Source: Phycisphaerae bacterium
GTDB taxonomy: Bacteria > Planctomycetota > Phycisphaerae > UBA1845
Length of the DNA: 58,144 bases
Reading direction: 5' to 3'
Assembly: GCA_028282665.1 (NCBI GenBank)
Contig: JANQHN010000321.1
Span: 1-58,144 of the forward strand
Position numbers and translations under genes: made by a program. Shown one piece after another: positions 6,497-33,909 of the stretch (its first letter is position 1; the number at the start of each line of letters is the position of its first letter). The notes beneath the pieces were generated by a model. That model did no database searches. It was not told the origin of the DNA and worked only from the letters and a program-made list of their open reading frames with translations.

Positions 6497-8944
6497 ATGG
6501 CCTACACATTCAAACATGGCACCCGTCCCCTCGACGATTACACGATACAGCGTGCGGTTGGCAGCGGTGGATTCGGCGAGGTGTATTACGCCGTCAGCGA
6601 CGGCGGGCGCGAGGTTGCCCTCAAGTACCTGCGCGACAATCCGGAGATCGAACTTCGAGGCGTGGGTCACTGCATGAACCTAAAAAGCCCGCACCTGGTT
6701 TCCATCTTCGACATCAAAAAGAACAACGACGGTGACTACTTCATCATCATGGAGTACATCTCAGGCCCGTCGCTTCGTGACATTCTGATTGCCGAACCCA
6801 ATGGCCTAGGCCAGCAAAAGGCTGCTTTCTTCGTTCGCGAAATCGCGAAAGGGTTAAGTTACTTGCACGATCGAGGCATCGTCCACCGCGACCTCAAACC
6901 CGGCAACATCTTTTACGACGACGGCTACGTGAAGATCGGCGACTATGGACTGAGCAAATTCATCGCCGTTTCGAGGCACAGCGCGCAAACGGCGAGCGTC
7001 GGCACTGTGCATTACATGGCACCGGAAATCGGCTCGGGCAACTATTCACGCGGCGTGGACATTTACGCCCTCGGCGTGATGCTCTACGAAATGCTGCTGG
7101 GCAAAGTACCGTTTGAGGGGTCGAGCATGGCCGAGGTGTTGATGAAACACCTGACCAGCCAACCCGAAATCGACGAACTCCCCGCCCCATTCGGCAAAGT
7201 GATTCGCAAAGCACTGGAGAAAGACCCAGCGGATCGCTATCAGACCGTGGACGAAATGGTGGAGGATCTGCTCGAAGTGCAAGATGTTCGGGAGAGCCTC
7301 GCAGGCTTTTCACCGCAGAGTTTGCAAGGCGCGGTGTACCGGGGCTCATCAGAGCCGGCTCCGTCCCCAAATCCTTCGCCCAATCCGTATGAAAACTTGC
7401 AACAACCAAGGCCTCAAACACCGCATCGGGCTGGAGAACAGGAAAACCTCCCGCCCTTCGCGATTCCTTTGCCGGACCGCCTGGCCCGCAAGCAGACCGC
7501 GATTTCACGCAAAATAGATTCGAAACTTCGCAAATTGGAAAGACGGGACGGCGTACGGCGTGATAAAGACGATCGAAACGATCCGCCTCCATACATACCA
7601 AGTAGCGATGCCGAGGCAATGGGTGGTCCGCCGCCCCCAGCCGGACACCAACAACGTACTATTGCTCCGGGCGAACACGTTAAGCGCATCACACTCGCGA
7701 TCTTTACATGGGCATGCCTCAGCATCTTGGCCGGGTTCGCGAGTGGAGCAATCTACGGAGACGAAGAAGAGGCGTTGGGCGCCGGTATGGCGGTTGCGCT
7801 TGGCAGCGTTGGGCTTTTTCTTTCGCGTAAAGTGCTCAAATGGGTCAGCAGCGAAACACAACCACTGTGGGTAGAACGAATCGTCCAGTTCGCTTGTTGT
7901 GCTCCTTGGGTGTTAATAGGACTGCTGCCTGCACAAGACGGCATGTCGGATAACGAATGGGCAGGATTGGTTATCGGCATGCTCGCTGTGGTGCTTTTAA
8001 ATAATTGGGACGGTGTTTTCAGGCAAGGCGCTGCCGGGACGATCAGCATATGGTCTGCCGCATGGACGGGGCTTTTCGCTTTAATCAGCGCCGCCGTCGC
8101 AAGCGGCATCGCCGACGGCGATCCGGACGATGTCATCGGCTTGGCGTTTGTAGCGGGTACGGGTTTGTCGCTAGTCGCCCAGGTTACCGGCTGGTGGCTT
8201 CCAGGCGTAGCCAATCGTCATGGTGGTGGAGGCCGACCAACGTCGGGACGATCAACAGATCATCCGCCTGCCGCGCCGAACGGACACGGCGAAAGCATGG
8301 AGATGTCCCATCACAGCAGAACAGAACAGAATTTCGGCGCAGCCGCAGACGAATATACGGAAAGGGTGGACCAGGATCAACACCATACAGCTTACGCTAA
8401 AACTGCGGGTGAAACCCTGACCGCACAGGAACGGATGGCCAAATTGGATCGGCTCGGCGAGCACAATCGCGACGGCAGAACCCGCCGCTGGGACATTACC
8501 CGGATGTTCTGGGCGTTCACTACGTTCGTATTCTTCCTTCTTTCCTGTGTCGTCTTCGTCGCTCCGCGCGCCTGGGCACGGGCGGATTACGACACGCAAT
8601 TCACACTGTCAATTGTGGCGTTCGGACTCTTCTGCGTTTGCATGTTCTGCACGACGAAGATGACCGTTTTCCGTCGCGCCGGCTTTTGGCGTGAAAGCTT
8701 CAGACCTTTCCTGATCTGTGCAAGCACCTTTGGCATCGCCAGCTCGATTTTTGCACTCGCCTCACACACGCACGAAAATAAGCCGTTCATCGTGTTACTT
8801 TGCCTGTCGAGCGTGGTTTTCCTGCTATCATTGATCTTTGGAGGCAGGAAACATCGTCGCGCCCGCCACGTGGAATCATTCATTATCAGCGCCAAAACTC
8901 CCGATGCCCACGCTCCAACCACCGAACCGCAAACGGAAATCTAA
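6497..8944 (+). CDS. Hanks-type Ser/Thr protein kinase with large polytopic membrane C-terminal region
   Basis: Motifs GSGGFGEVY, VALK, HRDLKPGNIF, DYGLSK and GTVHYMAPE sit in the first ~270 aa. A Pro-rich linker follows, then many hydrophobic segments. Confidence 0.9.
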   Translation: MAYTFKHGTRPLDDYTIQRAVGSGGFGEVYYAVSDGGREVALKYLRDNPEIELRGVGHCMNLKSPHLVSIFDIKKNNDGDYFIIMEYISGPSLRDILIAEPNGLGQQKAAFFVREIAKGLSYLHDRGIVHRDLKPGNIFYDDGYVKIGDYGLSKFIAVSRHSAQTASVGTVHYMAPEIGSGNYSRGVDIYALGVMLYEMLLGKVPFEGSSMAEVLMKHLTSQPEIDELPAPFGKVIRKALEKDPADRYQTVDEMVEDLLEVQDVRESLAGFSPQSLQGAVYRGSSEPAPSPNPSPNPYENLQQPRPQTPHRAGEQENLPPFAIPLPDRLARKQTAISRKIDSKLRKLERRDGVRRDKDDRNDPPPYIPSSDAEAMGGPPPPAGHQQRTIAPGEHVKRITLAIFTWACLSILAGFASGAIYGDEEEALGAGMAVALGSVGLFLSRKVLKWVSSETQPLWVERIVQFACCAPWVLIGLLPAQDGMSDNEWAGLVIGMLAVVLLNNWDGVFRQGAAGTISIWSAAWTGLFALISAAVASGIADGDPDDVIGLAFVAGTGLSLVAQVTGWWLPGVANRHGGGGRPTSGRSTDHPPAAPNGHGESMEMSHHSRTEQNFGAAADEYTERVDQDQHHTAYAKTAGETLTAQERMAKLDRLGEHNRDGRTRRWDITRMFWAFTTFVFFLLSCVVFVAPRAWARADYDTQFTLSIVAFGLFCVCMFCTTKMTVFRRAGFWRESFRPFLICASTFGIASSIFALASHTHENKPFIVLLCLSSVVFLLSLIFGGRKHRRARHVESFIISAKTPDAHAPTTEPQTEI

Positions 8945-15211: not shown

Positions 15212-15613
15212 ATGTTACAAACCGTCGCAGCCCATATCGGATCGAAAGTGTTGACCGCGTTGCTCGTGCTCGGGTGCTTGGGTGCGGGAATCTACTTTTG
15301 GCGCAACCCGGACGATCTAAGAGCGATCTGGCAGGTCATTAAATACGTACTGAGTTGGTTGGCTTTTGTGGCGGTCCTGCCTTGGGCGACCTTCTTCGTC
15401 ACCCGTTGGGTGATGAACATGGACTCGAACTGGGCGGAGGCACTCATGCTCATAGGCTACCTTGCGCTCGACATCGCGATGGCGATGTTTCTTGCGGGTT
15501 TCAGCGGACACGGATTCCTGGCCTGGAGCATCATGATCGTTGGATTTCTGACTGCCGCCGTTTATAATTTCCTTGTTTGCAATTACTTATCTGACCGATT
15601 CGAGGAAGCTTGA
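15212..15613 (+). CDS. small polytopic membrane protein
   Basis: 133 aa from ATG 15212, with four hydrophobic helices (VLTALLVLGCLGAGIYF, LSWLAFVAVLPWATFFV, LMLIGYLALDIAMAMFLAGF, SIMIVGFLTAAVYNFLV). It ends 30 nt before the kinase gene. Confidence 0.6.
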   Translation: MLQTVAAHIGSKVLTALLVLGCLGAGIYFWRNPDDLRAIWQVIKYVLSWLAFVAVLPWATFFVTRWVMNMDSNWAEALMLIGYLALDIAMAMFLAGFSGHGFLAWSIMIVGFLTAAVYNFLVCNYLSDRFEEA

Positions 15614-15643
15614 TCGGGTGCGGTCGCGGAAAGAACACAAGCC

Positions 15644-16723
15644 ATGTACACGCTGAGCAAAGGAGAACGAATTAGCAACTACTTGCTCGAAGCGCCCCTT
15701 GGACAGGGCAGCTTCGGCGAGGTGTGGCGGGCGCGGCATCACGTCTTTGACGATGTCGTGGCAATCAAAATTCCGACCGATCCGCAGTACGTACGTAACT
15801 TGCAGCGGGAAGGTCTTGTCGTACATGGCCTAAAACACCCCAACGTGGTTCGCGCGATCGATCTCGATCCGTACGCCACGCCGCCCTACCTGGTGATGGA
15901 ATTCATTGACGGGCCGACGTTGCGAGAGGCGATTGACAAGCTCAAAGACCGTTTCCCTCTGAAATCAGCCATCGCAATCGAGGAAGGCATCCTGCGCGCA
16001 CTCGATGCGGCGCACAAGACCGGACTTTTGCATCGCGACATCAAGCCGGCCAACATCATGCTGGCTCATCCATTGGATCAGATCGAAACGATTACGCCGG
16101 GCGGCGTAAAAGTCACTGACTTCGGTCTGGGGCGTGTCGGCGGCGATGTAGCGCAGTCCATCCTCATTAGCGGCCAATCTGAAACTGAGGGCGGTCGAAA
16201 CATCTCGGGAACGTTGGCATACATGTCCCCCGAGCAGCGTGAAGGTCGCGACCTCGACGGACGGTCTGATCTCTACGCTTGCGGTGTAGTGCTCTTCGAA
16301 ATGCTGACAGGCGAAAGACCTCAAGGACACGACCTGCCGACCATGTTACGGCGCCAGCTTCCCAAGCAGGTCGATGAATTCTTCAAAAAAGCGTACGCGA
16401 GGCAGGAAAAGCGGTACAAAGATGCCCAGGAAATGATCGACGACCTACTTCGCATCCCCACGGAATTGGTTGTTGCGGATCAGGGAAGCGTTAAATCGCC
16501 TCCTCCCCCGCCACAGACTTGGCCTCCCGGTCATGCTCATAAAAAAGAGGGCATTTGCTCATCTTGCAACACGCCGGTTCTACCTGAGGATCAATTCTGC
16601 ATCGCCTGTGGGCGATGTTTGGTCGAGGTCGTTCCTCGCTGTCCTCAGTGTAATGGATTCGTGGGGCGAAATGATTTGTTCTGCATCTTTTGCGGGCAGG
16701 ACCTGCGCAGGGAAACCGCGTAA
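15644..16723 (+). CDS. Ser/Thr protein kinase with C-terminal double zinc ribbon
   Basis: Kinase motifs GQGSFGEVW, VAIK, HRDIKPANIM, DFGL and GTLAYMSPEQ. The C-terminal CSSCNTPVLPEDQFCIACG...CPQCNGFVGRNDLFCIFCG gives two CxxC-N-CxxC ribbons. Confidence 0.9.
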   Translation: MYTLSKGERISNYLLEAPLGQGSFGEVWRARHHVFDDVVAIKIPTDPQYVRNLQREGLVVHGLKHPNVVRAIDLDPYATPPYLVMEFIDGPTLREAIDKLKDRFPLKSAIAIEEGILRALDAAHKTGLLHRDIKPANIMLAHPLDQIETITPGGVKVTDFGLGRVGGDVAQSILISGQSETEGGRNISGTLAYMSPEQREGRDLDGRSDLYACGVVLFEMLTGERPQGHDLPTMLRRQLPKQVDEFFKKAYARQEKRYKDAQEMIDDLLRIPTELVVADQGSVKSPPPPPQTWPPGHAHKKEGICSSCNTPVLPEDQFCIACGRCLVEVVPRCPQCNGFVGRNDLFCIFCGQDLRRETA

Positions 16724-16729
16724 GGGAGC

Positions 16730-17029
16730 ATGCCGATGAATACTTTAGGTCCAGTACTGCTGATCGCACTGCTGCTTCTTTGTGGAACTGTTATCTTCGG
16801 TGGGATCGCAGTCATTTGGAAACTGTCATCCTGGGTGGGCAGTGGATTTCAGCGAATGTTCGGTGATGACCCCACGCCCCCCATCGGCCATCCGCGTCGC
16901 GGCGGGCCGGTAATGTGCGGCAACCCGCGCTGCGGCAAAGTGGAATACAGACAGGCGAATTATTGCAGCCAGTGCGGGCAAAAACTCCTGCGCGGCTCGA
17001 GACGACACCTGGAGCACGAATACGCATGA
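16730..17029 (+). CDS. single-pass membrane protein with zinc ribbon
   Basis: 99 aa with a TM helix (VLLIALLLLCGTVIFGGIAVIW) followed by CGNPRCGKVEYRQANYCSQCG. The stop overlaps the next start (ATGA at 17026-17029). Confidence 0.65.
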   Translation: MPMNTLGPVLLIALLLLCGTVIFGGIAVIWKLSSWVGSGFQRMFGDDPTPPIGHPRRGGPVMCGNPRCGKVEYRQANYCSQCGQKLLRGSRRHLEHEYA

Positions 17030-18492
17030 CCCTATCCGCCTCCAAAGCCCTTCAACTCGAGACGGAGTTTCTATCCGGCGTCGACAACAAGCTCGAAGGC
17101 GCCAAAGGCAAGCTGCTACGCGGCTCGGTCTGGCAACGCGCCCGCACGGATGAAACTGACCACTTACGCGCTTTGATGGCGAAAAGCCAACTCTTCGACC
17201 GCAATCTGCTCAAGAATCTACCCGCCAACCGCCGTGTCGCCGTCCATGGTTTCGATCGCGTGTTGTTCTTTTGGAAACGGCGCACAGGTATCGCTATTGC
17301 GTCCACGCTTTCACCTCTTTCCCATTACGTCGAGAATCCGGACGAAACGCCGCCTCCAATTGGCTTAGGAGACCTCGCGGACCATGTCCGTAAGCTTGTG
17401 GGCGACCAAAATACACCACACATCATCGGCGTGTGCAGTCCCAGCGGTTTTACGGAGGAAGCTCGTGAAGCAGGCCTAGACTACACAAACGTCCAGCTCG
17501 TGCTAATCGAGCCGGATGGCGCAGGCGGATGGAAAATCACTCCCACAGCGGAGGATGTCGATCCAAGAATTGCCCAGATGTTCGATCCGGAGGGCAGTTC
17601 CGACAAGACGGAACGGATCAAAGCAGCGATTGATGCGAGCAGTTCCGACCTGCTGACAAGCGCAATCGACACGGAGTCGATTGCGAAAATGGTAAAATTG
17701 CCCGAACATCTGGTGGAGCAGGTGTTCGAACAAGTCGCGCAAGCTGATCCGGAACTTCGATTGAGCAAGAAAGATGGCGAGTGTTTGCTATATCGCGGGG
17801 CCCCGGTCGAAACGGTGGAGAAGAAATCGATGAGTATGATCGACCGCATCAAACAACTGTTTTCCCGCGAGGGCGACGAAAACGAGAAGATCAACGTCCT
17901 CTCGGAGCGTCGGGCGGCACTGGCGAAACGTCGGGATCGAATTTACGAGGACATCGGACAACTCGAGAGCAAAGAAGCCTCGTTGCTCGAAGAAGGCAAG
18001 GCCGCGAAGTCGCAGGTACCCAGGCGTCGGATTGCGGCACAGCTCGCACAGGTCCGTAAGGATATCGGTCGGCAGAATACCGTCGCTGCGATGTTGAACC
18101 AGCAGATCAACATCATCAGCACCGACATCCACAACCTCACGCTCATCAAACAGGGTGAGGCCGCCAGCTTGCCCGATACGCAGGAATTGACTGAGAACGC
18201 AGTGAAGGCGGAGGAGATGCTCGAGACGCTGCAGACGGACGCCGAGTTGGTTTCATCACTGGAAACGGGCATGGCAGAGATGAGCACGAGCGAAGAAGAA
18301 CTGGCGATTCTGCGTGAATTCGAGGAGGCGGATAAACCGGATCAAGCGCAGACCACTTCTGCTGCCACCCAATCGATTGCCCCTTCCGCCGCAGCGATCG
18401 ACGACGAATTTGCCGAGTTCGAGCCACCCGCAGACCCCACGCCGCCCTCCTCGGCTCGCAAGGAAAAAACGGGAGATGCGGAGGCGAGTTGA
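17026..18492 (+). CDS. Snf7/ESCRT-III-like protein with large N-terminal extension (Mrr-like region plus winged-helix-like segment)
   Basis: 488 aa from the ATG translationally coupled to the upstream gene. The C-terminal ~170 aa (INVLSERRAALAKRRDRIYEDIGQLESKEASLLEEGK...AAQLAQVRKDIGRQNTVAAMLNQQINIISTDIHNLTLIKQGEAA...EEMLETLQTDAELVSSLE...SEEELAILREFEE) follow the Snf7/CHMP4 helical hairpin and acidic tail pattern. Confidence 0.65.
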   Translation: MTLSASKALQLETEFLSGVDNKLEGAKGKLLRGSVWQRARTDETDHLRALMAKSQLFDRNLLKNLPANRRVAVHGFDRVLFFWKRRTGIAIASTLSPLSHYVENPDETPPPIGLGDLADHVRKLVGDQNTPHIIGVCSPSGFTEEAREAGLDYTNVQLVLIEPDGAGGWKITPTAEDVDPRIAQMFDPEGSSDKTERIKAAIDASSSDLLTSAIDTESIAKMVKLPEHLVEQVFEQVAQADPELRLSKKDGECLLYRGAPVETVEKKSMSMIDRIKQLFSREGDENEKINVLSERRAALAKRRDRIYEDIGQLESKEASLLEEGKAAKSQVPRRRIAAQLAQVRKDIGRQNTVAAMLNQQINIISTDIHNLTLIKQGEAASLPDTQELTENAVKAEEMLETLQTDAELVSSLETGMAEMSTSEEELAILREFEEADKPDQAQTTSAATQSIAPSAAAIDDEFAEFEPPADPTPPSSARKEKTGDAEAS

Positions 18493-18553
18493 AATCGACC
18501 ACATAGGGTAATCACTGCTAGTAGCAGTAACACAGGGAAGGATTGAATCGCCA

Positions 18554-19159
18554 ATGGCGCTTCTGGACTGGTTGACCAAACGAAACAAACCGCTCTCCAG
18601 GATGACGCGGTCCGAATTGCGCCGCCAAGAACTCCTCCTCGAAAAAGACCGCAATCAGCTTCTGAACAAAATCACCAAAATCGCCAAACAGAAGCAGGAG
18701 CTATTCGCCCGCGGCAAGGAAGAGAAAATTCCTGAAGTGCGTCGCGAACTAGCTCGCGAATTTGAGCTCAAGACAACCGAACAGCTCATGCTCTCTCGCC
18801 AGCTCAACATCCGCAGCAAGGAGATGATCACCGTCTCACGCCTGCGCATGATGCGAGAAAACGCCGACCGGGCAGGCACTAACAAACAGTTAGGCCTGAT
18901 CAGCGAGGCGGACATGTTGCGGCTCGGCAAAATGATCGAGTCCGACGCGATTCGAAGCGAGGTCTACCAGGAACGACTGGACGAAATCCTGCGCATGGGC
19001 CAGGAAGTCGACGAAGGCGGAGCTTCGCTCAGCGACGCCGGCCAGGACGTCATGAATATCTGGGAACGCATGGACACCGGCGCTATCACTGACGAAAACG
19101 AAGCCTTCGAAGAGGCGGACCGCACCGTACGCCAGCGACACGCAGCGCCGGAAGAGTAA
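18554..19159 (+). CDS. ESCRT-III/Snf7-like coiled-coil protein (Vps20/CHMP6-like pattern)
   Basis: 201 aa, basic N-terminal half and acidic C-terminal half. MTRSELRRQELLLEKDRNQLLNKITKIAKQKQELFARGKEEK..VRRELAREFELKTTEQLMLSRQLNIRSKEMITVSRLRMM aligns by eye to the ESCRT-III alpha1-alpha3 core. Confidence 0.6.
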   Translation: MALLDWLTKRNKPLSRMTRSELRRQELLLEKDRNQLLNKITKIAKQKQELFARGKEEKIPEVRRELAREFELKTTEQLMLSRQLNIRSKEMITVSRLRMMRENADRAGTNKQLGLISEADMLRLGKMIESDAIRSEVYQERLDEILRMGQEVDEGGASLSDAGQDVMNIWERMDTGAITDENEAFEEADRTVRQRHAAPEE

Positions 19160-19371
19160 CGGGTGCCGCAATTGGCGAATTTCGGTTGGCGATTGGGAGC
19201 GTCTGAGTTCGTTGTATAACGCGATCTGTCCGTCATTCCCTAGAAAGCGAGAACCCAGGGCGGCTTGGTTGAGTACCTAAACGGCACCCCGGCAAGACTG
19301 ACCGATCGACATATCAGGTGCGACCAAGGCGATTCGGTCGAGATTGTGCCGCCTAGGATTAAGAGGAAACT

Positions 19372-19572
19372 ATGCCACACAAAAAGCTAAGACGCAGCGC
19401 TCGCAGTCGCATAGTCGCCGGCGTGTGCGGCGGACTCGCGGAGTACTTTGATATCGATCCAGTCGCAATACGCGTGGGCTACGTGTTACTCAGTGTACTT
19501 TCGAACGGCTTTCCAGGCGTGTTAATTTATATACTGATCTGGATTCTCGTGCCCGAACGCGAATACGTATAG
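19372..19572 (+). CDS. pspC: PspC domain-containing membrane protein
   Basis: 66 aa. KLRRSARSRIVAGVCGGLAEYFDIDPVAIRVGYVLLSVL is the PspC signature, followed by a TM helix. Confidence 0.8.
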   Translation: MPHKKLRRSARSRIVAGVCGGLAEYFDIDPVAIRVGYVLLSVLSNGFPGVLIYILIWILVPEREYV

Positions 19573-19699
19573 GTTAGGTAGGCATCGTCGATTTGTGGCC
19601 GTCGAATGTTGACGGAAAAACGTTTAAACGCTCGCAAAAGGTCAAAACACAACCGCGATTTCATCGAAAATCGGTCATCAATAATACCGAGAGGTAAAT

Positions 19700-20308
19700 A
19701 TGGGACTGTTTAAATCAGCCGAAGAACGACGAATCGAGCGCGACATCAAGATTCGTCAGGGTATTCGTCGCATCGAGAAATCCATTCGTGAGCAAGCGAA
19801 GTTTCAGGATGAATTCATCAAGAACGCCCAACGCGCGAAGCAGATCGGCGACACCGCGCAGTACAACTTCATCCGCAATTCGCTCAAGAAGACCGCGGCA
19901 ATCCGCAAGATGCTCGAGCGGCAATTGCTCTCCGTAAAGAACGCCTTGCTCATCAAGCGGCAGGCGGAGGCAAGTGCCGACTTCGCACAGAGCATGGGCA
20001 TGATGGCCAGCGAAATCGGCAAACTTTTCGGCGAAACGGACCTCGTAAAAACGCAGGCGGACTGGGAGAAGGCGATGGTCCAGTCGCAGACGATGGAGGA
20101 ACGGATGAGCATGTTCCTCGACTCCGTGGAAGACATGGCCAGCCAGGATGTCGAAATGAGCGGCGCGACCGACGTGCTCAGCGACGAAGAAATCGATCGC
20201 ATGATCGAAGCGGAGACCGAGGCGGAACATCAAAAAGAATTGGACAAACTCGCGGGATTGCGGGCGGAACTGGACCAGCTCAAGGGCAAGAGCGAGAAGC
20301 AGAAGTAG
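19700..20308 (+). CDS. ESCRT-III-like protein (Vps2/Vps24/CHMP1-like; PspA superfamily) with C-terminal MIM-like helix
   Basis: 202 aa, starting MGLFKSAEER. It has a basic helical hairpin, a central segment FAQSMGMMASEIGKLFGETDLVKTQADWEKAMVQSQTMEERMSMFLDSVEDM (CHMP-like alpha3-alpha5), an acidic tail and a terminal LAGLRAELDQLKGK. Confidence 0.7.
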   Translation: MGLFKSAEERRIERDIKIRQGIRRIEKSIREQAKFQDEFIKNAQRAKQIGDTAQYNFIRNSLKKTAAIRKMLERQLLSVKNALLIKRQAEASADFAQSMGMMASEIGKLFGETDLVKTQADWEKAMVQSQTMEERMSMFLDSVEDMASQDVEMSGATDVLSDEEIDRMIEAETEAEHQKELDKLAGLRAELDQLKGKSEKQK

Positions 20309-20394
20309 GCTATCGGTCCAAATGACTCGCAATTAGTGGAATACCGATACGCAACCTGGCATTCGCACAAAATACGACACCGGAACCTATACCC

Positions 20395-21513
20395 ATGTCC
20401 GTATCCTTCGCCACATTTGAACGTCTGAAAAACAAGGGCGTATCCTCGTACCAGAAGGGCGACTACCTTGCCGCGAAGAGTTACCTCGTCGACGCGGCCG
20501 AGTGCCTGATCGAACTTGCAGAGAAGGCGAAGACCGACGAAGCACGCCGCCAACACGAAGAACTCGCCGCCGAACTCATCGAACTCGCCAAGGAGGCGGA
20601 CCAAAACCACAAAACCGGCGGAAAAAAGAAGCGTCGCCAGTCCGTCTCCGAAGACGAAAGCGAATCGGACGCCTCCGAGTGGATCGTTAAGGAGAAACCG
20701 GACATCGGCTTCGACGACATCGCCGGTTTGGACGACGTCAAACAGGACATTCGCCTCAAGATGCTCTACCCGTTCAAGCACCCCGAACTCGCTAAAAAAT
20801 ACGGTATTTCGACGGGCGGTGGGGTACTGCTCTACGGCCCGCCGGGCACCGGAAAAACCATGATGGCAAAAGCGATTGCGCACGAGGTCGAGGCGACATT
20901 CTTCGTGATCTCCCCGGCACAAATGCTTAGCAAATGGGTTGGTGAGGCGGAGCAGAACATCAAAAAGCTCTTCGATGCCGCCAAACAGGAAGAAATCGCC
21001 GTCATCTTCATCGACGAAATCGAAGCCCTCGTGCCGCGTCGCAAAAGCGACTCGTCAACGGTGATGCAACGCGTCGTGCCGCAAATTCTCCAGGAACTCG
21101 AAGGCTTCGACCGCAAGTCGGACCGGGCGCTCTTGTTCATCGGAGCGACGAATAAGCCGTGGATGCTGGATGAAGCGATGATGAGACCCGGTCGAATGGA
21201 TGCGCGAATTTACGTTGGCCTACCCGATGGTCCAGCCCGCTTCAAGCTGCTCGAAATCTACCTCGCGCGCAGACCTTTGGATGGCGATGTGAACTTCGGC
21301 ATTTTATGCGACAAACTTGACGGCTATACTGGAGCGGACATCAAGAACATCGCCCAACAGGCAGCCCAGATCCCCTTCATGGAAGCGATCGGCGGCGGCG
21401 AACCCAGGCCGATCTCGATGGCGGATGTCGTCGCGGTCATCGACCAAACTCCACCTTCCGTCCACCCCTCGGATCTTGTGCGATTTGACAAGTTCCGAGC
21501 GGATGGGAAATAA
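20395..21513 (+). CDS. Vps4/CdvC-like AAA+ ATPase with N-terminal MIT-like domain
   Basis: 372 aa. The N-terminal three-helix segment is YQKGDYLAAKSYLVDAAECLIELAEKAKTDEARRQHEELAAELIELAKEA. It then has VKEKPDIGFDDIAGLDDVKQDIRLKMLYPFKHPELA, Walker A GPPGTGKT, the pore loop SKWVGEAEQNIKKLF, Walker B VIFIDEIE and a C-terminal DLVRFDKFRADG. These all parallel archaeal CdvC and eukaryotic Vps4. Confidence 0.85.
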   Translation: MSVSFATFERLKNKGVSSYQKGDYLAAKSYLVDAAECLIELAEKAKTDEARRQHEELAAELIELAKEADQNHKTGGKKKRRQSVSEDESESDASEWIVKEKPDIGFDDIAGLDDVKQDIRLKMLYPFKHPELAKKYGISTGGGVLLYGPPGTGKTMMAKAIAHEVEATFFVISPAQMLSKWVGEAEQNIKKLFDAAKQEEIAVIFIDEIEALVPRRKSDSSTVMQRVVPQILQELEGFDRKSDRALLFIGATNKPWMLDEAMMRPGRMDARIYVGLPDGPARFKLLEIYLARRPLDGDVNFGILCDKLDGYTGADIKNIAQQAAQIPFMEAIGGGEPRPISMADVVAVIDQTPPSVHPSDLVRFDKFRADGK

Positions 21514-23875: not shown

Positions 23876-24730
23876 TCATACACGCTCGCCCGAGTCGGAA
23901 AGTACCCACCCGGCATTTCCATCGGGCAGTTCGATACGCCACCACGCGCCTCGTTCTTCCAACACGGTGAACTCGACGCCCGCCTGGAGAGGTTGGGCGA
24001 ACTGCTTTTGGTACCCCTCACCCGGTCCTTTCCGCACGGTGACGTCGGTGCCGAGAAGGACCGCAGGAGGTGTGCGCTCGTTGCTTTGACGTTCATAAAT
24101 CACGGAACCAATCGACATCGCACAAAACAAGCCCGCAGCTAGAGCGCACCAAGCCACTGCCTGCGAGCGCACGAAATTGCGTATGAGAAGGAGAATCCAA
24201 AGGGCTGCAAACAGCGCGATCGCGGCACGGATTCTACCTCCCATTGTGGTGTCGAAGTGCCAGAACAGCAACGAACGCAACAGTTTGTCCCGGCCTGCAG
24301 TCGCGATTTGATTCACCCGTCGTTCGCGCGCGAGATTCAAGTTGTGTGCGAGGTAGGGGTCGCGCGGGATGAGGCGCTGCGCTCGGCGGTAGTGGAGAAT
24401 GGCCTCACCGATGTCGCCGGCTTGCAAGTAGGCGTTGCCAAGGTTGTATTCGAGTTTCCCGTTTGACACGCCGCGTGCGATGATGGTTTCCAGTTGGGTC
24501 GCGACGTTGCGAAAGATGCGCCTGGCTTCGTCGGGATTTGCTTCAAGCAGAGCTTGCGCTCGGTCAAACTCCTCCAATGCTGCCGCGATGCGTTCCTCGT
24601 CGGCGGGCGCGGCAGCCATCTCCGCCCAAACCGGTGCCGACGTCATCGACAAGACAACAAGCCCAAGAATACGGATGAGCATTGCCTTTAGCGCGGCTGG
24701 TCGCGAATTGGGCGAAAAGACACCAGTCAT
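23876..24730 (-). CDS. batE: BatE-like protein (signal peptide, TPR, TM segments, C-terminal SH3b)
   Basis: 284 aa. Has the TPR LEYNLGNAYLQAGDIGEAILHYRRAQRLIPRD and a C-terminal SH3-like VTVRKGPGEGYQKQFAQPLQAGVEFTVLEERGAWWRIELPDGNAGWV. ATGA overlap with batD. Confidence 0.75.
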   Translation of the reverse strand: MTGVFSPNSRPAALKAMLIRILGLVVLSMTSAPVWAEMAAAPADEERIAAALEEFDRAQALLEANPDEARRIFRNVATQLETIIARGVSNGKLEYNLGNAYLQAGDIGEAILHYRRAQRLIPRDPYLAHNLNLARERRVNQIATAGRDKLLRSLLFWHFDTTMGGRIRAAIALFAALWILLLIRNFVRSQAVAWCALAAGLFCAMSIGSVIYERQSNERTPPAVLLGTDVTVRKGPGEGYQKQFAQPLQAGVEFTVLEERGAWWRIELPDGNAGWVLSDSGERV

Positions 24731-26520
24731 GATTTCGCCACCTCCTTGATAATCGATTCTGCCCGGTCAATAAGGCGATTGGCTTCTTCTTCCGCCCCCC
24801 CCATACCCGCGTAGCTCGCCTGCTCACATTCTCGAATGAAATCCACAACCATCGTTCGTGTTTTGTCTTTTATCCCAAATTCCATAAATCGGGCGTTGAG
24901 TTCTTCACAAGCAAGGTGACCTGTCGGAAGATTTAACCAGTCAGCCACGAAGCGCCCTACCGCCTGACCCGTCTTGTGGATTTTGTCGGCACTCACGGAA
25001 GATCGCCTGGCCTCCTGAAGCATTTCCTTCGCTACCCCGTGCGCTTGACGTCGCCGCGCGTACGCCGGATCGGTGGACAGGCGTTTTCGTCGTAGCGTGA
25101 TAAACGTGACCAGCAAATAAACAGCAGGAGGGAAGCAGAGGGTCGCAGCCCACACCGGTGTCAACAAAAACTGCTGCGACGCGACAAGTCTACTTGCATT
25201 TGCATAGTTGGGCATGATCCCTCCGCTGAGCACCGTGAGTGTCTCGCTCTCGGGTTTAGCCTCTGTCCCATCGGTTAGTTGTATTGCGCCTAGCTGTTTG
25301 GACGGCGGATCGACTACGATGTCCAGTGCGTCGCTACGCAACGTTACGTACGCCTCTTCGACGGGGTCGAAGTAAGACATAGAGAGCGGAGGAATGGTTT
25401 GCTCGCCCTCACGCTTGGGAAACACCGCCTTGCGAAACACTTTCGCATCGTCCTGGAGTTCGCCTACGAGTTCTTCACGCGTGAAGTCAAACCGACTGAC
25501 GAGTTCGGGTTGCAAACTCAGGTCCGGTCCGGGGGCGCCTGCGATCGGATCGCCTTGAAGCTCGATTGTAATGGTGACGGGTTCGCCCAGTTCGATGCGC
25601 TGCGGCTTGGCGCTAACATTCATATCGTACCGGCCAATCGCGCCTACGTAGTCGGCAGGTTTGCCATTCTCCGGCGGCGCTTTGACGACGACAATAATCG
25701 CATCGGCCCGAGCAGTAGCACGCTCAGCATCCACCACGGTCAGTTCGCCCCAAATGTTTCGTCGCACTGCGGTTGGATAGTTGACCCGTGCGAAGATCGG
25801 ACCGATTTGCGCTTGACCGGGATCGGCTGCTACGAAGTCAACGGTAAAATGGAAGACTTTGTACGCGTGCCGTTCACCATCCGAATCAGTCAGCCAAGTT
25901 TGTCTGTAAGTGCCTTGCCTCTGTCGAATCACATCCAAAAAAATGCCAAACTTTGATCGCTCAAGATCCAGAACATTGCGTATCAGATCGATATCCACAA
26001 CCTGGCCGCGCTGGGTGAATTCGCGAATGTAGAGTTTCAGTGTGGCACGATAGGTTTGTGTCACATAAACAGCATCCGGAAAGACCTCCAACTCCACGAA
26101 GACGAGGCTTTCGGATTTGGGCTTGATAGTCGGCTCGCGTACGAAAACGTTGGTCGTATCCGTGGTGTATTCCCGCCCATCGGCCGTAACAGTGAACGGA
26201 CCTACCTCGTAGCTGCCCGCTTTGGATGCGGTGAGGCTGAGGAAATAGGTGTAGGTAGCCCGTTCGGTGCGGCGTCCGTTGACGATGCTGACCATCGACC
26301 GCTGCGAAGGATTGGGGTTCAAAAGCTGAATTTCCAAATTTTCCCGCGCAACAACCTGAGGAGCAGACGGCACACCGGTGTTGGTGCAAACCAACTGCAC
26401 CAGCACGGGTTCGCCAACCTCAATCGACTTCGATTGAATGTTCACCGTTACGCCAGGCGACTGTGCGAAAACCGCCGAGGCGATGCATAACGATACGAAA
26501 AAAAACGCGTATTTGGACAT
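24727..26520 (-). CDS. batD: BatD-like (oxygen tolerance family) protein
   Basis: 597 aa with a signal peptide, repeated beta-rich segments, one late TM helix and a cytoplasmic tail. Its position between BatC and BatE is as in the Bacteroides Bat operon. Confidence 0.75.
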   Translation of the reverse strand: MSKYAFFFVSLCIASAVFAQSPGVTVNIQSKSIEVGEPVLVQLVCTNTGVPSAPQVVARENLEIQLLNPNPSQRSMVSIVNGRRTERATYTYFLSLTASKAGSYEVGPFTVTADGREYTTDTTNVFVREPTIKPKSESLVFVELEVFPDAVYVTQTYRATLKLYIREFTQRGQVVDIDLIRNVLDLERSKFGIFLDVIRQRQGTYRQTWLTDSDGERHAYKVFHFTVDFVAADPGQAQIGPIFARVNYPTAVRRNIWGELTVVDAERATARADAIIVVVKAPPENGKPADYVGAIGRYDMNVSAKPQRIELGEPVTITIELQGDPIAGAPGPDLSLQPELVSRFDFTREELVGELQDDAKVFRKAVFPKREGEQTIPPLSMSYFDPVEEAYVTLRSDALDIVVDPPSKQLGAIQLTDGTEAKPESETLTVLSGGIMPNYANASRLVASQQFLLTPVWAATLCFPPAVYLLVTFITLRRKRLSTDPAYARRRQAHGVAKEMLQEARRSSVSADKIHKTGQAVGRFVADWLNLPTGHLACEELNARFMEFGIKDKTRTMVVDFIRECEQASYAGMGGAEEEANRLIDRAESIIKEVAKS

Positions 26521-27516
26521 TTACCAATCCTTCTTCTCATTACGCGGCGCCGGCTGGGCGGGCACGTACTCGACACGGTCCTGTTTACGGCGGCGCATCT
26601 CGTCGATCAGTTGACGCAATTGACGCAAGGCCTGCTCCAGCGACTCCTCATTGGGCTCGGCCTGCTGCGGCGTGGCTTGTGGTTGTTGTTCATCCTCACC
26701 TTGTGGCGCCTGCTGCCGCTCAGTCTCCTGCGCTTGATCCCGTTGCTGTTGATCTTGATTTTGCTGCGATTCCTGTCGCTCGCTGGATTGGTCCTGCTGT
26801 TGTTGATTCTGCTGGCTTTGTTGCTGATCCTGTTGTGGGTCCTGTTGCTCTTGATTGTCGTTTTGTTGTTGATCCTGCTGTTGTTGCTGCTGGATCTCCT
26901 TGAGTTGTCTCCAGACAGTGCCAGCCTTGTAATTGGCTTCCCGGGCGGCAGCGTGACCAGGGTTGGCCCCCAATACATCCTGGTAACCACGCATGGCGCG
27001 TTCGAACGAACTGATCGCTGCCTGCGGGTCGTCGCCCTGTTCGAGCGCTTGCAAGTGATCCGCCGCAGCCCGAGCGAACATCGCGTCATCCGCCAGCTTG
27101 CGATCTTCACCATAAGCAGCCTTCTCAAACGCGGCGCGCGCTTTGTCGTATTCTTTTAGGCGTAAATGACCAAGGCCCGTGTTGAAATCGATCTCCTTAG
27201 CGTCCGGCAGCTTTTCACGAGCAGCCAAGTATGCATCCAACGCTTCACGAAGTTTTTCCGCCTCAAATAGCGCGTTTCCTTCACTCACAAGTTTACGCGC
27301 GTTCGCCCGTTCGGAACGCGAAGCAGGTGCCTCTCGATCCACTTCTGATGCAGTTGCCGGATCGGCAGATTGTGTTTCTTCCGTCCTTCCCGGTTCATTA
27401 GCGATGGGCAAATTGCTCGAACTCGATGTAGCTTGCGCGTAACCGAGATCCGGCGACATCAACAATCCGCCTGCGACGCAAAAAGCGAACAAGGCGTATC
27501 GGCTGCATTCGCTCAT
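26521..27516 (-). CDS. batC: BatC-like TPR protein with Q-rich C-terminal tract
   Basis: 331 aa from ATG 27516 (ATGA overlap with the batB stop, GGAGGGAG upstream). Has a signal peptide, TPR units (LVSEGNALFEAEKLREALDAYLAAREKLPDA...), then ~80 aa dominated by Q/D/E. Confidence 0.75.
   Translation of the reverse strand: MSECSRYALFAFCVAGGLLMSPDLGYAQATSSSSNLPIANEPGRTEETQSADPATASEVDREAPASRSERANARKLVSEGNALFEAEKLREALDAYLAAREKLPDAKEIDFNTGLGHLRLKEYDKARAAFEKAAYGEDRKLADDAMFARAAADHLQALEQGDDPQAAISSFERAMRGYQDVLGANPGHAAAREANYKAGTVWRQLKEIQQQQQQDQQQNDNQEQQDPQQDQQQSQQNQQQQDQSSERQESQQNQDQQQRDQAQETERQQAPQGEDEQQPQATPQQAEPNEESLEQALRQLRQLIDEMRRRKQDRVEYVPAQPAPRNEKKDW
26661..26895 (-). repeat. coding low-complexity CAG/CAA (Gln)-rich tract
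   Basis: The plus strand is ctg/ttg-rich (ctgctgttgttgattctgctggctttgttgctgatcctgttg...). It encodes QQQQQQDQQQNDNQEQQDPQQDQQQSQQNQQQQDQ... Confidence 0.8.
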
Positions 27517-28679
27517 GATTCTCCCTCCTGCTGCCACGTTCGCGTTGGCAGGTCTGCAGTCGATCTGCGCCGCTCGCTAATAAACGGCTCAACGCACAGC
27601 AGTGCAATGCAGGCTGCAAGAAACCATTGATAGCGTGGCCTGGTTCGCTCGCGACGTTCGGTCGTCAACAACTCCCGGTGCATATCCGCGATCCCCTCGA
27701 CCACCCAGGACAGGTGCTCCAAGGGGGTATAACGTCCTTCACCCACTTCCGCGATGCGAGACAAACCCTGCGGGTCGATTTTGGAAAAGACGATTTTACC
27801 TTCGTACACGAGCGGCTTGGCTTTAGGTGTGTCATCGCTAGGCACTTCCGCGCCGGCGGCCAGCGTCGGATCCCCCGCTCCAACAGTGAAGGTTCGCACA
27901 CCGTCTTCCTGATAGACGGTCTGGGCGGCGGCAATGGGGTCGCCCTCGTGATCCTCGCCGTCTGTAACGATCAAGATAATTTTTGTCGCCTTTTCCGGCG
28001 AGGAAGCGAAAAACTCGGCGGCGGCGTAGATCGCTTCCGCGATCGCGGTTCCACCTTGAGGCGCGCTGCGAATGTCAACCTTATCCAACGTATCACGGAA
28101 AAAAGCGTGGTCGAGACTTAAAGGCACCTTCATCGAAGTGGCTCCCGCGAACACGAGCAATCCCAGCCGGTTCGATCGGTTGAACAGATTCCGCTCGGTC
28201 AATTGCCTTCGAAGTTCTTCTTTGGCGCGGGTAAGGCGGTTGGGCGAAAGGTCGCGGGCGAGCATCGAACGTGACACATCCAGGGCAACCACGACATCCA
28301 CGCCATACGCCTCTTCCTCCTCGATGTACACTCCCCATCGCGGCCCGACAATTGCGGCAATGAGCAGCACAAATGCCGTCATCACCAAGCAGGCGCGAAC
28401 GACCTGCCTGCTGGAAATAAATCGTGTACCCAACAGCGGCGCGAGCGCAGCAGAAGTGAATCGAGTAAGTGCCCTCCGTTTGCGATACAGCCCCCACACA
28501 TAGAGCAAGCTGGCTATCGGAACTACGCATATCAGCCACAAAAGATCGAAATTGTCGAAAGGCCAATCTCCAATCTCTGTGAGCAAAATTGCGCAAAGAC
28601 CCGCAAACGCCAACGCGACGGGCCAAATCAGCACCCACACAACCCAGGCTGCTTTTGCGTATATCTTTTCTGGCGTCAC
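27513..28679 (-). CDS. batB: VWA domain protein BatB
   Basis: 388 aa with N-terminal TM helices and a VWA MIDAS motif (VVVALDVSRSM ... IILIVTDGEDHEG). Four-nt overlaps on both sides. Confidence 0.85.
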   Translation of the reverse strand: MTPEKIYAKAAWVVWVLIWPVALAFAGLCAILLTEIGDWPFDNFDLLWLICVVPIASLLYVWGLYRKRRALTRFTSAALAPLLGTRFISSRQVVRACLVMTAFVLLIAAIVGPRWGVYIEEEEAYGVDVVVALDVSRSMLARDLSPNRLTRAKEELRRQLTERNLFNRSNRLGLLVFAGATSMKVPLSLDHAFFRDTLDKVDIRSAPQGGTAIAEAIYAAAEFFASSPEKATKIILIVTDGEDHEGDPIAAAQTVYQEDGVRTFTVGAGDPTLAAGAEVPSDDTPKAKPLVYEGKIVFSKIDPQGLSRIAEVGEGRYTPLEHLSWVVEGIADMHRELLTTERRERTRPRYQWFLAACIALLCVEPFISERRRSTADLPTRTWQQEGES

Positions 28680-29773
28680 GGCACCGTCCTAAATCGCGTA
28701 TTGATCAACAGCACCTCAAAAAACAGTAAACCCAATCCAATGAGCATCGCGTATCGCGCTGCCTGCGTGTCATCGCGATACGCACGATCGCCGGTAGCCT
28801 GCCGTTCAAGCTTGTCGATCTGCTCGTAAATTTGCGTGAGTGAACGAGTATCCATCGCTCGGAAATACGCGCCGCCGGTAGTGCTGGCGATACGCTTGAG
28901 CGTGGGTTCATCCACACGGTCAGTTCGACCAAATCCGGGTAACATCCTTGTCTGCCCAATGGCACCGATTGTGTAAATCTTGATGTCAAATTTTGCCGCA
29001 AGCTTGGCTGCCTCGACCGGATTGGGTACGGATTCCCGGAATTCCCTAGGTGGATTGTCAGACCCATCCGTGAGCAGGATCATCACTTTGCTCTTCGCGG
29101 CCTCTGCGCCGGGCAATCCCAAACGTGCTTGCTCACCCGCTCGACGCAGTTCGTGCGTTGCGAGAGTGATGGCGCTCCCCAACGACGTGTGCATGGATTC
29201 AGGATGTTCCCATCGCTGTTGTCCGTTGATCCACCCGGGGATTTCCGTCGCTCTTAACAACTCGGCAAGGTTGGCATGATCGAGAGTTAGCGGGCATCGC
29301 GTATCGGCGTAGTAAGCAAACGTCGTCATACCAATAAGATCGTTAGGCCTGCCCGGGAGCCTGTCGGTCCCGAGCACAAAATCGCGAAACACCTTCTTCA
29401 CCGCGTCAATGCGGCGGACCCGCTTGCCGTCGATGACAAAGTCCTGATCGGACATGCTGCCCGATACGTCGAGAACCATCTGAATCGCAATACCTTCCCG
29501 CGATTCCGCAACCTCTCCACCCATCTTCGGTCGCGCGAGGGCAAAAACCAGAGCAAGGATCGCACAGATGCGGATAAAAGGTACAATCCAACGAATACGT
29601 GTGACAAAGCTGGGTGAGACGCGCTTTACGAAGGCCAATGATGAGAACCTTATCGTTGGTGGCTTAGTCGCAAGATAACGAACCCATATAAGCGGTGCGA
29701 ATAACAAAAACACTACACAAAGCACACCGAAGATAAATCCCGGTTGAAAACGTTCGAACAATTGATCGATCAT
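28676..29773 (-). CDS. batA: VWA domain protein BatA
   Basis: 365 aa from ATG 29773 (ATGA overlap with the upstream stop). Has TM helices, VWA motifs (IQMVLDVSGSM ... VMILLTDGSDN) and a C-terminal TM. Confidence 0.85.
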   Translation of the reverse strand: MIDQLFERFQPGFIFGVLCVVFLLFAPLIWVRYLATKPPTIRFSSLAFVKRVSPSFVTRIRWIVPFIRICAILALVFALARPKMGGEVAESREGIAIQMVLDVSGSMSDQDFVIDGKRVRRIDAVKKVFRDFVLGTDRLPGRPNDLIGMTTFAYYADTRCPLTLDHANLAELLRATEIPGWINGQQRWEHPESMHTSLGSAITLATHELRRAGEQARLGLPGAEAAKSKVMILLTDGSDNPPREFRESVPNPVEAAKLAAKFDIKIYTIGAIGQTRMLPGFGRTDRVDEPTLKRIASTTGGAYFRAMDTRSLTQIYEQIDKLERQATGDRAYRDDTQAARYAMLIGLGLLFFEVLLINTRFRTVP

Positions 29774-31032: not shown

Positions 31033-31086
31033 TGCTCAACACTCCTTGCGATTATCTCTTTGTTTGCGGATGCTCAATGTCGCCGC

Positions 31087-31965: not shown

Positions 31966-31995
31966 TGCAAATCCTCGGCAATCGCAAATTCACAA

Positions 31996-32994: not shown

Positions 32995-33909
32995 GAAAGG
33001 GGACTCCTTCAAATCGTTCTTCTCTTGAAAAATTCACCCTGGATTGGGCACTGGTTTGCGGGTCGTGCTCCGCCCGCGGATAGAGACGCAATGTAACGAA
33101 GATACCTGTCAATGGGGCAGTTGAAACGTCGGCGCGGTACAATCTTGTGACACTTTCCAATTGACACACCGCCCCGCAGAAAGTGACACTGCAATATGCG
33201 CGTGATTAATCGCTCTTCCAGACAACAGCGGGCTGACAAGCGGTTCAACTTCAACCACATCCCCAATGCGCAAATAGCGATTTGTCAAAGAGACCGGCAG
33301 GTAAGTATTTGAGAGTATTTTACGAACTATTAACTGTATCTCAACGGACTACCTTGAGCAAGCCAATCTGGATTTGATATAGTGTCCCTTTAGCTTAGGG
33401 CGTTCTTCAACGAATTTAATATCACCATCATGATGTCTATTTTAACGGTGTATGGTGAGTTGAATTAAGGAGTGATCTTGAACAGCAATGGCAAGGTATC
33501 CCGCTGATGCCTTTAGTAAGTGATCCATTCGTTCAACATAGATCATTCATGCGGTGATAGACACGCTCGCAGCCGACAAAAGGACGACAGGGAATGGGCA
33601 ACTGTAAGGAAGCCTCGGGTCGGGCTTCCGAAACGGACTCACCGGTTTCAATTCTGATTCTGCGTGTATGGACGAAATCGCCATCCTAGCGCAAGAAGAA
33701 ACAGTCGTCTACAAAAGTATGCGGTCTCGCGCGGTCTCTTCGCGCACATGACTTATGGCTATGGAAGGATTCGTGAGCACAAGTGCAATTTGTGGTTCTA
33801 GGGTCGTGTGGCGGATTGTACTGGTAGAAACGAAGTCCCACGAATGAACTGGGGCTCATGGATGAAACACAGCGTCCCCTTCGCTTGGGACTGGAGGTGG
33901 AGGAAAATT

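Follow-up and report, generated by a model that had tools for sequence, protein, structure and literature searches.

Background

Whether bacteria possess a membrane-remodelling machine built from an ESCRT-III protein and a dedicated Vps4-type ATPase is the question raised by a cluster of eight genes in the genome of a Phycisphaerae bacterium (NCBI GenBank assembly GCA_028282665.1). The cluster, whose genes are called g1 to g8 here, lies at positions 15212-21513 of contig JANQHN010000321.1, which was analysed on the forward strand from position 1 to 58,144; this whole stretch of 58,144 nucleotides is referred to as the window. A first-pass annotation, made from the letters alone, had described the cluster as a hybrid of the bacterial Psp system and the ESCRT machinery under control of a kinase, and had attributed the DNA to the Planctomycetota, an origin which is confirmed.

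Liu et al. 2021 found Snf7-type proteins in archaea and eukaryotes only (PMC8281802), and reviews from 2023-2025 describe bacteria as being without a clear Vps4 homolog (PMC7615534, PMC7619361). An exception is the survey of Ravi et al. 2024, who reported VPS4-like AAA+ ATPases in several bacterial lineages, e.g. ACB74714.1, as well as occasional bacterial Snf7 or PspA genes beside AAA+ ATPases, and proposed ATP-dependent membrane remodelling (PMC11237479). Their work is partial prior art, at the level of a gene-neighbourhood survey. Compared by description, it differs from the present case: in their examples of VPS4 transfer snf7 is replaced by a TPR-6TM protein, in other examples there are double-AAA proteins, or Snf7 proteins bearing a transmembrane (TM) segment occur with genes for an ABC transporter and OmpA, and neither the term 'Planctomycetes' nor an eight-gene architecture with kinase, g4/g5 family and PspC occurs in it (PMC11237479). 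No paper was found in the library searched that describes this operon or combines Planctomycetota, ESCRT and Vps4, and ESCRT does not come up in a 2025 review covering a century of research on planctomycetes.

The host lineage gives the question its weight. All planctomycetes are without ftsZ (PMC12673574), in agreement with the FtsZ-less division on which the first-pass annotation had built, and how they divide is recognised as unsolved (PMC12673574, PMC5147048). The second argument of that annotation, complex endomembranes, does not apply, as such membranes appear to be absent in Phycisphaerae according to a 2025 review (PMC12673574).

In this study, we find by sequence comparison a Snf7-type protein and a CdvC-like MIT-AAA ATPase paired in an operon that is conserved across a bacterial class. 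The cluster probably encodes a bacterial ESCRT-III/Vps4-type membrane-remodelling machine, kept as one conserved operon in Phycisphaerae. We assign the two core proteins, give the conservation of the cluster within Phycisphaerae and its relatives in distant lineages, and weigh division against other possible roles.

The gene cluster

The open reading frames (ORFs) and their coordinates were all verified, and all eight lie on the + strand:

15212-15613 (alternative start 15149), + strand: g1, membrane protein of 133 aa with four hydrophobic segments
15644-16723, + strand: g2, Hanks-type Ser/Thr kinase of 359 aa with a C-terminal double zinc ribbon
16730-17029, + strand: g3, 99 aa, N-terminal TM helix and Cys4 zinc ribbon
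17026-18492, + strand: g4, two-part protein of 488 aa with an N-half (~1-255) forming a globular domain of unassigned fold and a helical C-half (~256-488)
18554-19159, + strand: g5, all-helical protein of 201 aa
19372-19572, + strand: g6, PspC-domain membrane protein of 66 aa
19700-20308, + strand: g7, predicted Snf7/CHMP-family protein of 202 aa
20395-21513, + strand: g8, predicted CdvC/Vps4-like AAA ATPase of 372 aa

The spacers from g1 to g8 measure 30, 6, -4, 61, 212, 127 and 86 bp, in line with the earlier description of eight closely spaced genes on the same strand. The proposed coupling of g3 and g4 can be read directly in the sequence, where the g3 stop overlaps the g4 start in an ATGA (gcATGAcc at 17026).

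g7, a putative Snf7/CHMP-type ESCRT-III protein

The assignment of g7 to ESCRT-III is made at the level of the family and not from the single sequence. Single-sequence searches of Pfam, NCBIfam and PDB with g4, g5 and g7 gave nothing, and pairwise BLASTP among the three gave no matches. Searches for close homologs of g7 and g5 returned only relatives of at least 73% identity, so that profiles made from them were too shallow. An exhaustive search of cluster representatives with g7 recovered 315 clusters at E<=1e-3, including full-length proteins of ~200 aa at 24-48% identity, and an alignment of 51 diverse members served as the g7 family profile (A3). Twelve of the 51 match Pfam Snf7 (PF03357) individually, the best at 1.1e-7; no other family recurs, and PspA_IM30 is matched by 0/51. 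One relative which is 41% identical to g7 (P0253) matches Pfam Snf7 at 5.5e-5 over positions 4-163 of 171, nearly the whole model. Against all PDB sequences the A3 profile found CHMP2A at 1e-4 and CHMP3 at 4e-4 to 3e-3, followed more weakly by Snf7 (0.08), CdvB (0.085), CHMP1B (0.14) and CdvB2 (0.24). All natural matches are ESCRT-III proteins, and the remainder are a few designed peptides.

The AlphaFold2 (AF2) model of g7 (pLDDT 70) places helices at 7-49, 52-110, 115-153 and 162-201, i.e. an alpha1-alpha2 hairpin and then alpha3-alpha5, the arrangement of the ESCRT-III fold. The best six Foldseek matches of this model are all ESCRT-III and comprise CdvB, CHMP2A/CHMP3 (probability 1.0, TM-score 0.67, target-normalised) and Asgard (Loki) CHMP4-7.

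Both ends of the protein are conserved. The N-terminal motif 'MGLFKS' is invariant among close relatives, and the C-terminal amphipathic helix (~180-195), ELDKLAGLRAELDQLK, is invariant in 25 close relatives. Distant relatives end in 'D..I...L..IE.EL', with hydrophobic residues at positions 3, 7 and 10 of MIM1, and by inspection the terminal helix of g7 is a candidate MIM1-like element. The 'EIDR(L/M)I' segment, which is alpha5-like, and the terminal amphipathic helix (MIM) presumably correspond to those of CHMP2 and CHMP3. Taken as a family, the sequences thus identify g7 as a Snf7/CHMP-family ESCRT-III protein, and the CHMP/Vps2-like protein of 202 aa in the first-pass annotation is borne out.

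g8, a putative CdvC/Vps4-like ATPase

In the g8 protein a MIT-like three-helix N-domain (~1-70) is joined by a charged linker to a single AAA domain, which is followed by a Vps4_C helix at the C-terminus. Pfam AAA matches at 4e-41 and Vps4_C (PF09336) with 24.0 bits (gathering threshold 21.3), and the Walker motifs GPPGTGKT and FIDEIE are intact. The best full-length NCBIfam model is CdvC, which aligns residues 15-365 with model positions 18-362 of 370 at 243 bits, far below the equivalog cutoff of 650. The C-terminal 94 aa find as best matches the archaeal Vps4 structures 4d81, 4d82 and 4lgm, aligned through the terminal helix. Pore loop 1 reads 'SKWVGEAEQN' in g8 and 'SKWLGEAEKN' in CdvC, as compared to 'SKMAGESESN' and 'SMWFGESESN' in Cdc48 and 'EMFVGVGASR' in FtsH. 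An 'IGATNKPW-LDEA' block is nearly identical to that of CdvC, and g8 and CdvC run colinear through to the final residue, the beta-domain being absent in both.

The N-terminal 70 residues were missed by Pfam MIT and by the NCBIfam CdvC model alone, and gave weak TPR_2 matches. Real crenarchaeal cdvB-cdvC loci were therefore collected for comparison from metagenomes, in a scan seeded with a M. sedula Vps4 fragment. A profile of Phycisphaerae N-domains only found a single MIT domain (E 0.11) and aligned with the CdvC MIT profile in hhalign at 38% (E 3.3e-4). The link to MIT emerged only once the N-domains of distant systems had joined the profile: the N-domain profile A10, made from diverse ESCRT-III-linked bacterial ATPases, aligned with the CdvC MIT profile at 94.6% (E 6.6e-8; reversed control 0.025) and found, over the full domain, the MIT domains of Sulfolobus Vps4 (2w2u, 1.1e-3) and of human VPS4A/B (1.6e-3) in PDB. 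Profile comparison thus indicates that the g8 N-domain is homologous to the CdvC MIT domain.

A neighbour-joining tree of 233 core columns, rooted on E. coli FtsH, is indicative only, since its reference set is small and comprises no PAN, archaeal Cdc48, katanin/spastin or eukaryotic Vps4; in this tree g8-type ATPases group with crenarchaeal CdvC in 65% of bootstraps and g8 with Cdc48-D2 in 0%, and bacterial ESCRT-III-linked ATPases together with CdvC exclude Cdc48 D1/D2 at 71%. MIT homology, a Vps4_C match above threshold and CdvC-like motifs characterise g8 as a CdvC/Vps4-like ATPase; here the MIT+AAA protein of the first-pass annotation has stood up.

Conservation across Phycisphaerae

A scan of one genome per species found g7 relatives in 329 genomes, and the counts below rest on the best 80 of these 329 loci, almost all of which are from Phycisphaerae or from Planctomycetota metagenome-assembled genomes (MAGs). 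Database searches with g7 gave 2820 relatives. The best 120 are all at least 83% identical, and every organism-named one among them is from Phycisphaerae or Planctomycetota. Synteny was read by tblastn of the window proteins against the best 80 loci, with the 65 loci that extend at least 5.2 kb upstream of g7 as denominator. In 56 of these 65, g1, g2, g4 and g5 are found upstream of g7 in the order and strand of the window. The genes which flank the cluster in the window (glycosyltransferase-TPR, DinB, GDPD) are not conserved at the related loci by tblastn. The claimed association of the genes in relatives therefore holds, and the cluster is far beyond chance association.

The genes differ in their degree of conservation. 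Median identity across loci is 83% for g7, 71% for g8 and g5, 60% for g6, 56% for g4, 55% for g2, 49% for g1 and 35% for g3; no other gene of the cluster is as conserved as g7 (83% vs 49-57% for g1, g2 and g4), which points to strong constraint. Among the best 80 loci, g5 occurs in 69, g4 in 67, g2 in 63, g1 in 60 (upstream of g2), g6 in 56 and g3 in 30 (at ~35% identity), the last of these being by its sequence short and fast-evolving.

The distance between g7 and g8 is variable. In 20/60 loci g8 follows within 110 bp, and in 40/60 a gap of 0.2-3.7 kb holds variable genes, including MNT/HEPN-like pairs. As their content varies between genomes, these inserted genes were rejected as members of the system. 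With its nucleotidyltransferase/HEPN-like toxin-antitoxin pairs, the g7-g8 spacer across the 80 loci (L001-L080) seems to be an insertion hotspot. A complete Phycisphaerae-type cluster (g7 at 82% identity) was also seen on a 558-kb contig labelled as an Alphaproteobacteria MAG (L040, JANQQE010000024.1), which is probably mis-binned or mislabelled.

Related modules in distant lineages

Relatives of the module were read at the following distant loci:

L083, Planctomycetota: MerR-g4 N-half protein, two unassigned proteins, type-B ATPase, g7-like gene, g8 ortholog, then Pkinase-TPR
L084: g4 N-half, g4 C-half-like gene, two g5-like genes, ATPase, g7-like gene, ATPase
L082: g4 N-half, two unassigned genes, ATPase, g7-like gene, Pkinase
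L089 (2234-10501) and L090 (2681-12751), a Brocadiae-labelled and another Planctomycetota MAG: g4 N-half, g4 C-half-like gene, two g5-like genes, a protein of 161 aa, type-B ATPase, g7-like gene
L085 (9360-11640) and L088 (3414-6584), Clostridia, between der/plsY and spoIVA: two g7-like genes and an AAA ATPase of 353 aa
L086 (5884-12183): weak g5-like gene, g7-like gene and AAA+Vps4_C ATPase of 493 aa, beside Band_7+DZR, a trypsin-like protease, BrxL and a TIR protein of 1347 aa

A gene of the g7 family adjoins an AAA ATPase in every readable distant locus but L087. For most of these g7-adjacent ATPases a Vps4_C match is recorded, and genes of the g5/g4 type, the former in one or two copies, are usually present too. 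The type-B ATPases of the related Planctomycetota clusters have the CdvC-type 'S--RFEKKILIPLPD' ('S--RFEKK') motif and a lid insertion. Comparison of the loci therefore gives as the recurrent core a g7 (Snf7) family gene and a MIT-AAA ATPase, usually together with the g5/g4 family.

Regulators and membrane partners differ by lineage; only the Phycisphaerae version has PspC, g1 and g3. Kinases adjoin the relatives in L082 and L083. At L089 and L090 a divergently transcribed pair of HisKA kinase and sigma54-dependent response regulator stands in place of the Hanks kinase. In the Clostridia locus L088 the first g7-like domain has an FtsK/SpoIIIE ATPase domain fused to its C-terminus (511 aa), and the Clostridia module is possibly an ESCRT-III-like module linked to membrane events of sporulation. 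To judge by its surroundings, the core module at L086 seems to lie in a defence island.

g4 and g5, a paired helical family

The helical C-half of g4 and g5 are by profile comparison paralogs of each other. A non-circular hhalign comparison aligned them over 128 columns at 70.6% (E 3.9e-5; reversed control 0.58), and in iterative searches the two families merge. L084, L089 and L090 each have separate genes for the N-half and the C-half of g4.

Three Snf7-type paralogs had been proposed in the first-pass annotation, and of these only g7 was linked to Snf7, through its family. No match to Snf7 or PspA in Pfam was obtained for g4, g5 or eight distant relatives, and g4 matched nothing in Pfam or among PDB sequences. 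The profiles A2, A7 (g4) and A9 (broadened g5, 34 members) found no ESCRT-III or PspA chain in PDB, A7 and A9 yielding only designed coiled coils or nothing. The AF2 model of g5 (pLDDT 82, pTM 0.78) shows helices at 2-8, 19-56, 60-107, 118-154, 161-175 and 181-196, that is a short N-terminal helix, a hairpin of 38 and 48 residues and three further helices, a pattern resembling alpha0-alpha6. The modelled layout is compatible with ESCRT-III and is no proof of membership; in Foldseek de novo four-helix bundles come first, CdvB2 is 29th (E 1.8) and Vipp1 41st. Aligned with the g7 family by hhalign, g5 and the g4 C-half gave E 0.003-0.075. Since the true pair of g7 family and CdvB reaches only E 0.026, negatives of this kind are uninformative and do not exclude a divergent kinship.

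Residues ~205-250 of the g4 N-half (within 17026-17790) are winged-helix-like by eye, and their hhalign comparison with the C-terminal winged-helix region of CdvB is non-significant (E 0.13). At L083 a domain homologous to the g4 N-half follows a MerR helix-turn-helix.

The kinase and the membrane proteins

The kinase with a double zinc ribbon described in the first-pass annotation was recovered in g2, with Pkinase at 4e-37, visible HRD, DFG and VAIK motifs, and DZR/zinc-ribbon matches under the gathering threshold (DZR 2.5e-5, residues 305-351). In g3 the N-terminal TM helix and the Cys4 ribbon were likewise confirmed, with weak zinc-ribbon matches in Pfam. No Pfam or NCBIfam match was found for g1; its four TM segments were counted by reading the sequence, and it is a candidate membrane anchor.

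The PspC identity of g6 is well founded: Pfam PspC (PF04024) matches at 2.2e-24, with 85 bits against a gathering threshold of 25, and TIGR02978 with 55.8 bits, below its cutoff of 104. No cluster protein matches PspA_IM30 (PF04012) at E<1, and no PspC-domain gene was called in the distant clusters L082-L084, L089 and L090. The label of a hybrid Psp/ESCRT system had its sole basis in this PspC domain and finds no support here; a PspA_IM30 protein is missing, and PspC is absent from related clusters outside Phycisphaerae.

The flanks of the cluster in the window (PMT_2/TPR glycosyltransferase, DinB, GDPD and a Bat/vWA operon) are unrelated to it. No Rfam family was found in the cluster region, and promoter and terminator scans of the region gave nothing informative. 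Three further features of the window were recorded:

6497-8944, + strand: second Hanks-type Ser/Thr kinase of 815 aa (Pkinase 5e-50), 6 kb upstream of the cluster
23876-33012, - strand: Bat/vWA-type operon with TPR+SH3 protein, BatD, TPR protein, VWA protein and further ORFs
33808-49398, + strand: single ORF of 5196 aa

Comparison with known systems

Among the nearest known counterparts is the crenarchaeal Cdv system (CdvA-CdvB-CdvC). In archaeal ESCRT loci the ESCRT-III gene lies upstream of the ATPase gene (PMC10936438), and g7 and g8 are found in the same order, directly adjacent at 86 bp. The ATPases agree in domain order, in length (372 vs 370-382 aa), in the pore loop and 'GATNKPW-LDEA', in the colinear C-terminal helix without a beta-domain and in a homologous N-domain, and the hosts of both systems are without FtsZ. 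Unlike Cdv, the system here belongs to a bacterium, its g7 has no C-terminal winged-helix domain and fits CHMP2A/CHMP3 better than CdvB by profile, and in place of a CdvA homolog there are g1, g3, PspC, g4, g5 and the Hanks kinase. Moreover, g8 carries 'RPGR' where CdvC has 'R--RF', and its score stays below the CdvC equivalog cutoff.

With eukaryotic and Asgard ESCRT-III (CHMP2/CHMP3, A-type) and Vps4 the cluster shares an alignment of the g7 profile over alpha1-alpha4 with CHMP2A and CHMP3, a 'MGLF...' N-terminus and an acidic linker in g7, and an N-domain profile of the g8 type which matches the VPS4A/VPS4B MIT domains at ~1e-3. It differs from them in that genes for ESCRT-I or ESCRT-II and a link to ubiquitin are missing here, a single Snf7-type gene can be demonstrated, the ATPase has no beta-domain and a bacterial Hanks kinase would be the regulator.

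The bacterial Psp/Vipp1 systems (PspA-PspB-PspC, LiaIH) likewise include in their operon a small membrane protein with a PspC domain, and g1 with its four TM segments may be a small multi-TM partner by analogy with LiaI. Unlike in Psp systems, there is no PspA_IM30-type protein, g7 being Snf7-type, the window holds no PspF or PspB, and a dedicated Vps4-like ATPase is present, which Psp systems do not have according to reviews (PMC7619361, PMC7615534).

A possible mechanism

Observation extends to the assignment of families, to the motifs and to the conserved linkage; the interactions between the proteins we infer in each case. From its family membership, g7 would bind the cytoplasmic membrane with its N-terminal 'MGLFKS' and polymerise through its alpha1-alpha5 core. 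The C-terminal amphipathic helix of g7 would be bound by the MIT-like domain of g8, and g8, an AAA ATPase of one ring whose pore loop 'SKW-GEAE' is of CdvC type, would thread and extract g7 subunits. This extraction would drive turnover of the polymer, constriction and scission. The helical proteins g5 and g4, which accompany the g7 family and the ATPase from lineage to lineage, may be co-polymer or nucleator subunits. The small membrane proteins g1, g3 and the PspC-domain protein g6 may position or recruit the polymer, and the Hanks kinase g2 may gate its assembly by phosphorylation.

Concerning the cellular role of such a machine, cytokinesis in these FtsZ-less bacteria is about as likely as Psp-like envelope repair, and each can be put forward tentatively; vesicle formation is less likely. 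More specifically and more speculatively, the operon might be the machine by which Phycisphaerae carry out cytokinesis independently of FtsZ, as a bacterial counterpart to archaeal Cdv that has variants in other Planctomycetota. It is conceivable, if doubtful, that polymers of g7, remodelled by g8 and timed by the Hanks kinase, would then constrict and cut the mid-cell membrane. The lack of ftsZ in planctomycetes (PMC12673574), the unusual conservation of g7 and, by analogy, the parallel to Cdv speak for a role in division. Against it, the PspC domain points to envelope stress, the sigma54 two-component pair beside the L089/L090 clusters suggests inducible, Psp-like expression, and relatives of the module are found in Clostridia, which contain FtsZ, and in the defence-island-like context of L086.

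Weighing the alternatives

Several results weigh against the reading of the cluster as an ESCRT-III/Vps4-type machine. On its own, g7 has no match to Pfam Snf7 (PF03357) at E<1; the Foldseek E-values of its ESCRT-III matches are weak (0.06-0.2), with BAR-like bundles scoring similarly and following closely; its terminal helix matches the MIM1 consensus inexactly, with E instead of R at position 6; and the direct hhalign match of its family to real CdvB is weak. Neither g5 nor the g4 C-half can be placed in ESCRT-III or PspA. On the side of the ATPase, the AAA core of g8 taken alone scores higher with NCBIfam CDC48 (231 bits) and PAN (225) than with CdvC (211). Its arginine-finger region, 'MRPGRMDARIY', is like 'CRPGRLDQLIY' of Cdc48-D2 and 'LRPGRFDRQVV' of FtsH where CdvC has 'LR--RFQKRIY', so that the CdvC-type second region of homology ('R--RF.KR', without 'PG') is not present in g8. 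The neighbour-joining tree, with few references, has moderate support.

The alternative that survives best is a Psp-like envelope-stress repair system rather than a division or scission machine, in which g7, together with g5 and g4, would form a stabilising coat on damaged membrane. The PspC-domain protein would recruit g7, g8 would only recycle the polymer and the kinase would act as a damage sensor. We consider this possible, and both parts of it tentative. The strong PspC domain in g6 is in its favour, as are the HisKA and sigma54-activator pair adjoining the Brocadiae-type clusters, which is reminiscent of PspF control, and the related modules in bacteria possessing FtsZ. It has to contend with the missing PspA_IM30 protein, g7 being of Snf7-type and not of PspA-type, and with the confinement of PspC to the Phycisphaerae version. 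For an accessory stress system, so high a conservation of g7 and its occurrence in 329 genomes at species level would moreover be unusual, though not impossible.

It is unlikely that g8 is a general Cdc48/PAN-like unfoldase, with the helical proteins as its adaptors or substrates, in the service of protein quality control or of membrane-protein extraction, with no membrane remodelling driven by a polymer. The slightly higher scores of CDC48 and PAN on the AAA core, the Cdc48/p97 domains which lead the PDB sequence matches of g8, and the 'RPGR' common to Cdc48 and FtsH would fit this explanation. They are opposed by the MIT-like N-domain, the Vps4_C tail and the CdvC-type pore loop of g8, by the 0% of bootstraps that group g8 with Cdc48-D2 and by the persistent adjacency of the ATPase to a Snf7-family gene across phyla; nor does g8 have a Cdc48-type N-domain, and the window holds no protease partner.

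An anti-phage or abortive-infection system of kinase, IetA-like AAA ATPase and membrane effectors is very improbable and is rejected: g2 and g8 are hit by PADLOC's PD-T4-6 kinase and IetA ATPase models, g8 is also hit by IteA of NCBIfam, and the distant relative L086 lies among TIR, BrxL and trypsin-like genes, but the PADLOC matches are generic ones at domain level which leave the helical and membrane proteins unmatched, the window holds no nuclease, protease or toxin effector, and defence islands are patchy and fast-evolving whereas here the order is fixed in 56/65 Phycisphaerae species genomes and g7 is under very strong purifying selection.

Implications

The reading of the cluster as an ESCRT-III/Vps4-type membrane-remodelling machine makes the operon a concrete candidate for the division of planctomycetes without FtsZ. 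The g5 protein and the g4 C-half define a new helical protein family which travels with bacterial ESCRT-III. Together with the conserved operon, the related modules in other Planctomycetota and in Clostridia bear on the origin of the machine: the pairing of ESCRT-III and Vps4 may pre-date the split of archaea and bacteria, or it may have entered bacteria by an early transfer. If the operon does serve cytokinesis, this pairing would not be limited to the archaea and the eukaryotes, and would be either older than assumed or transferred early.

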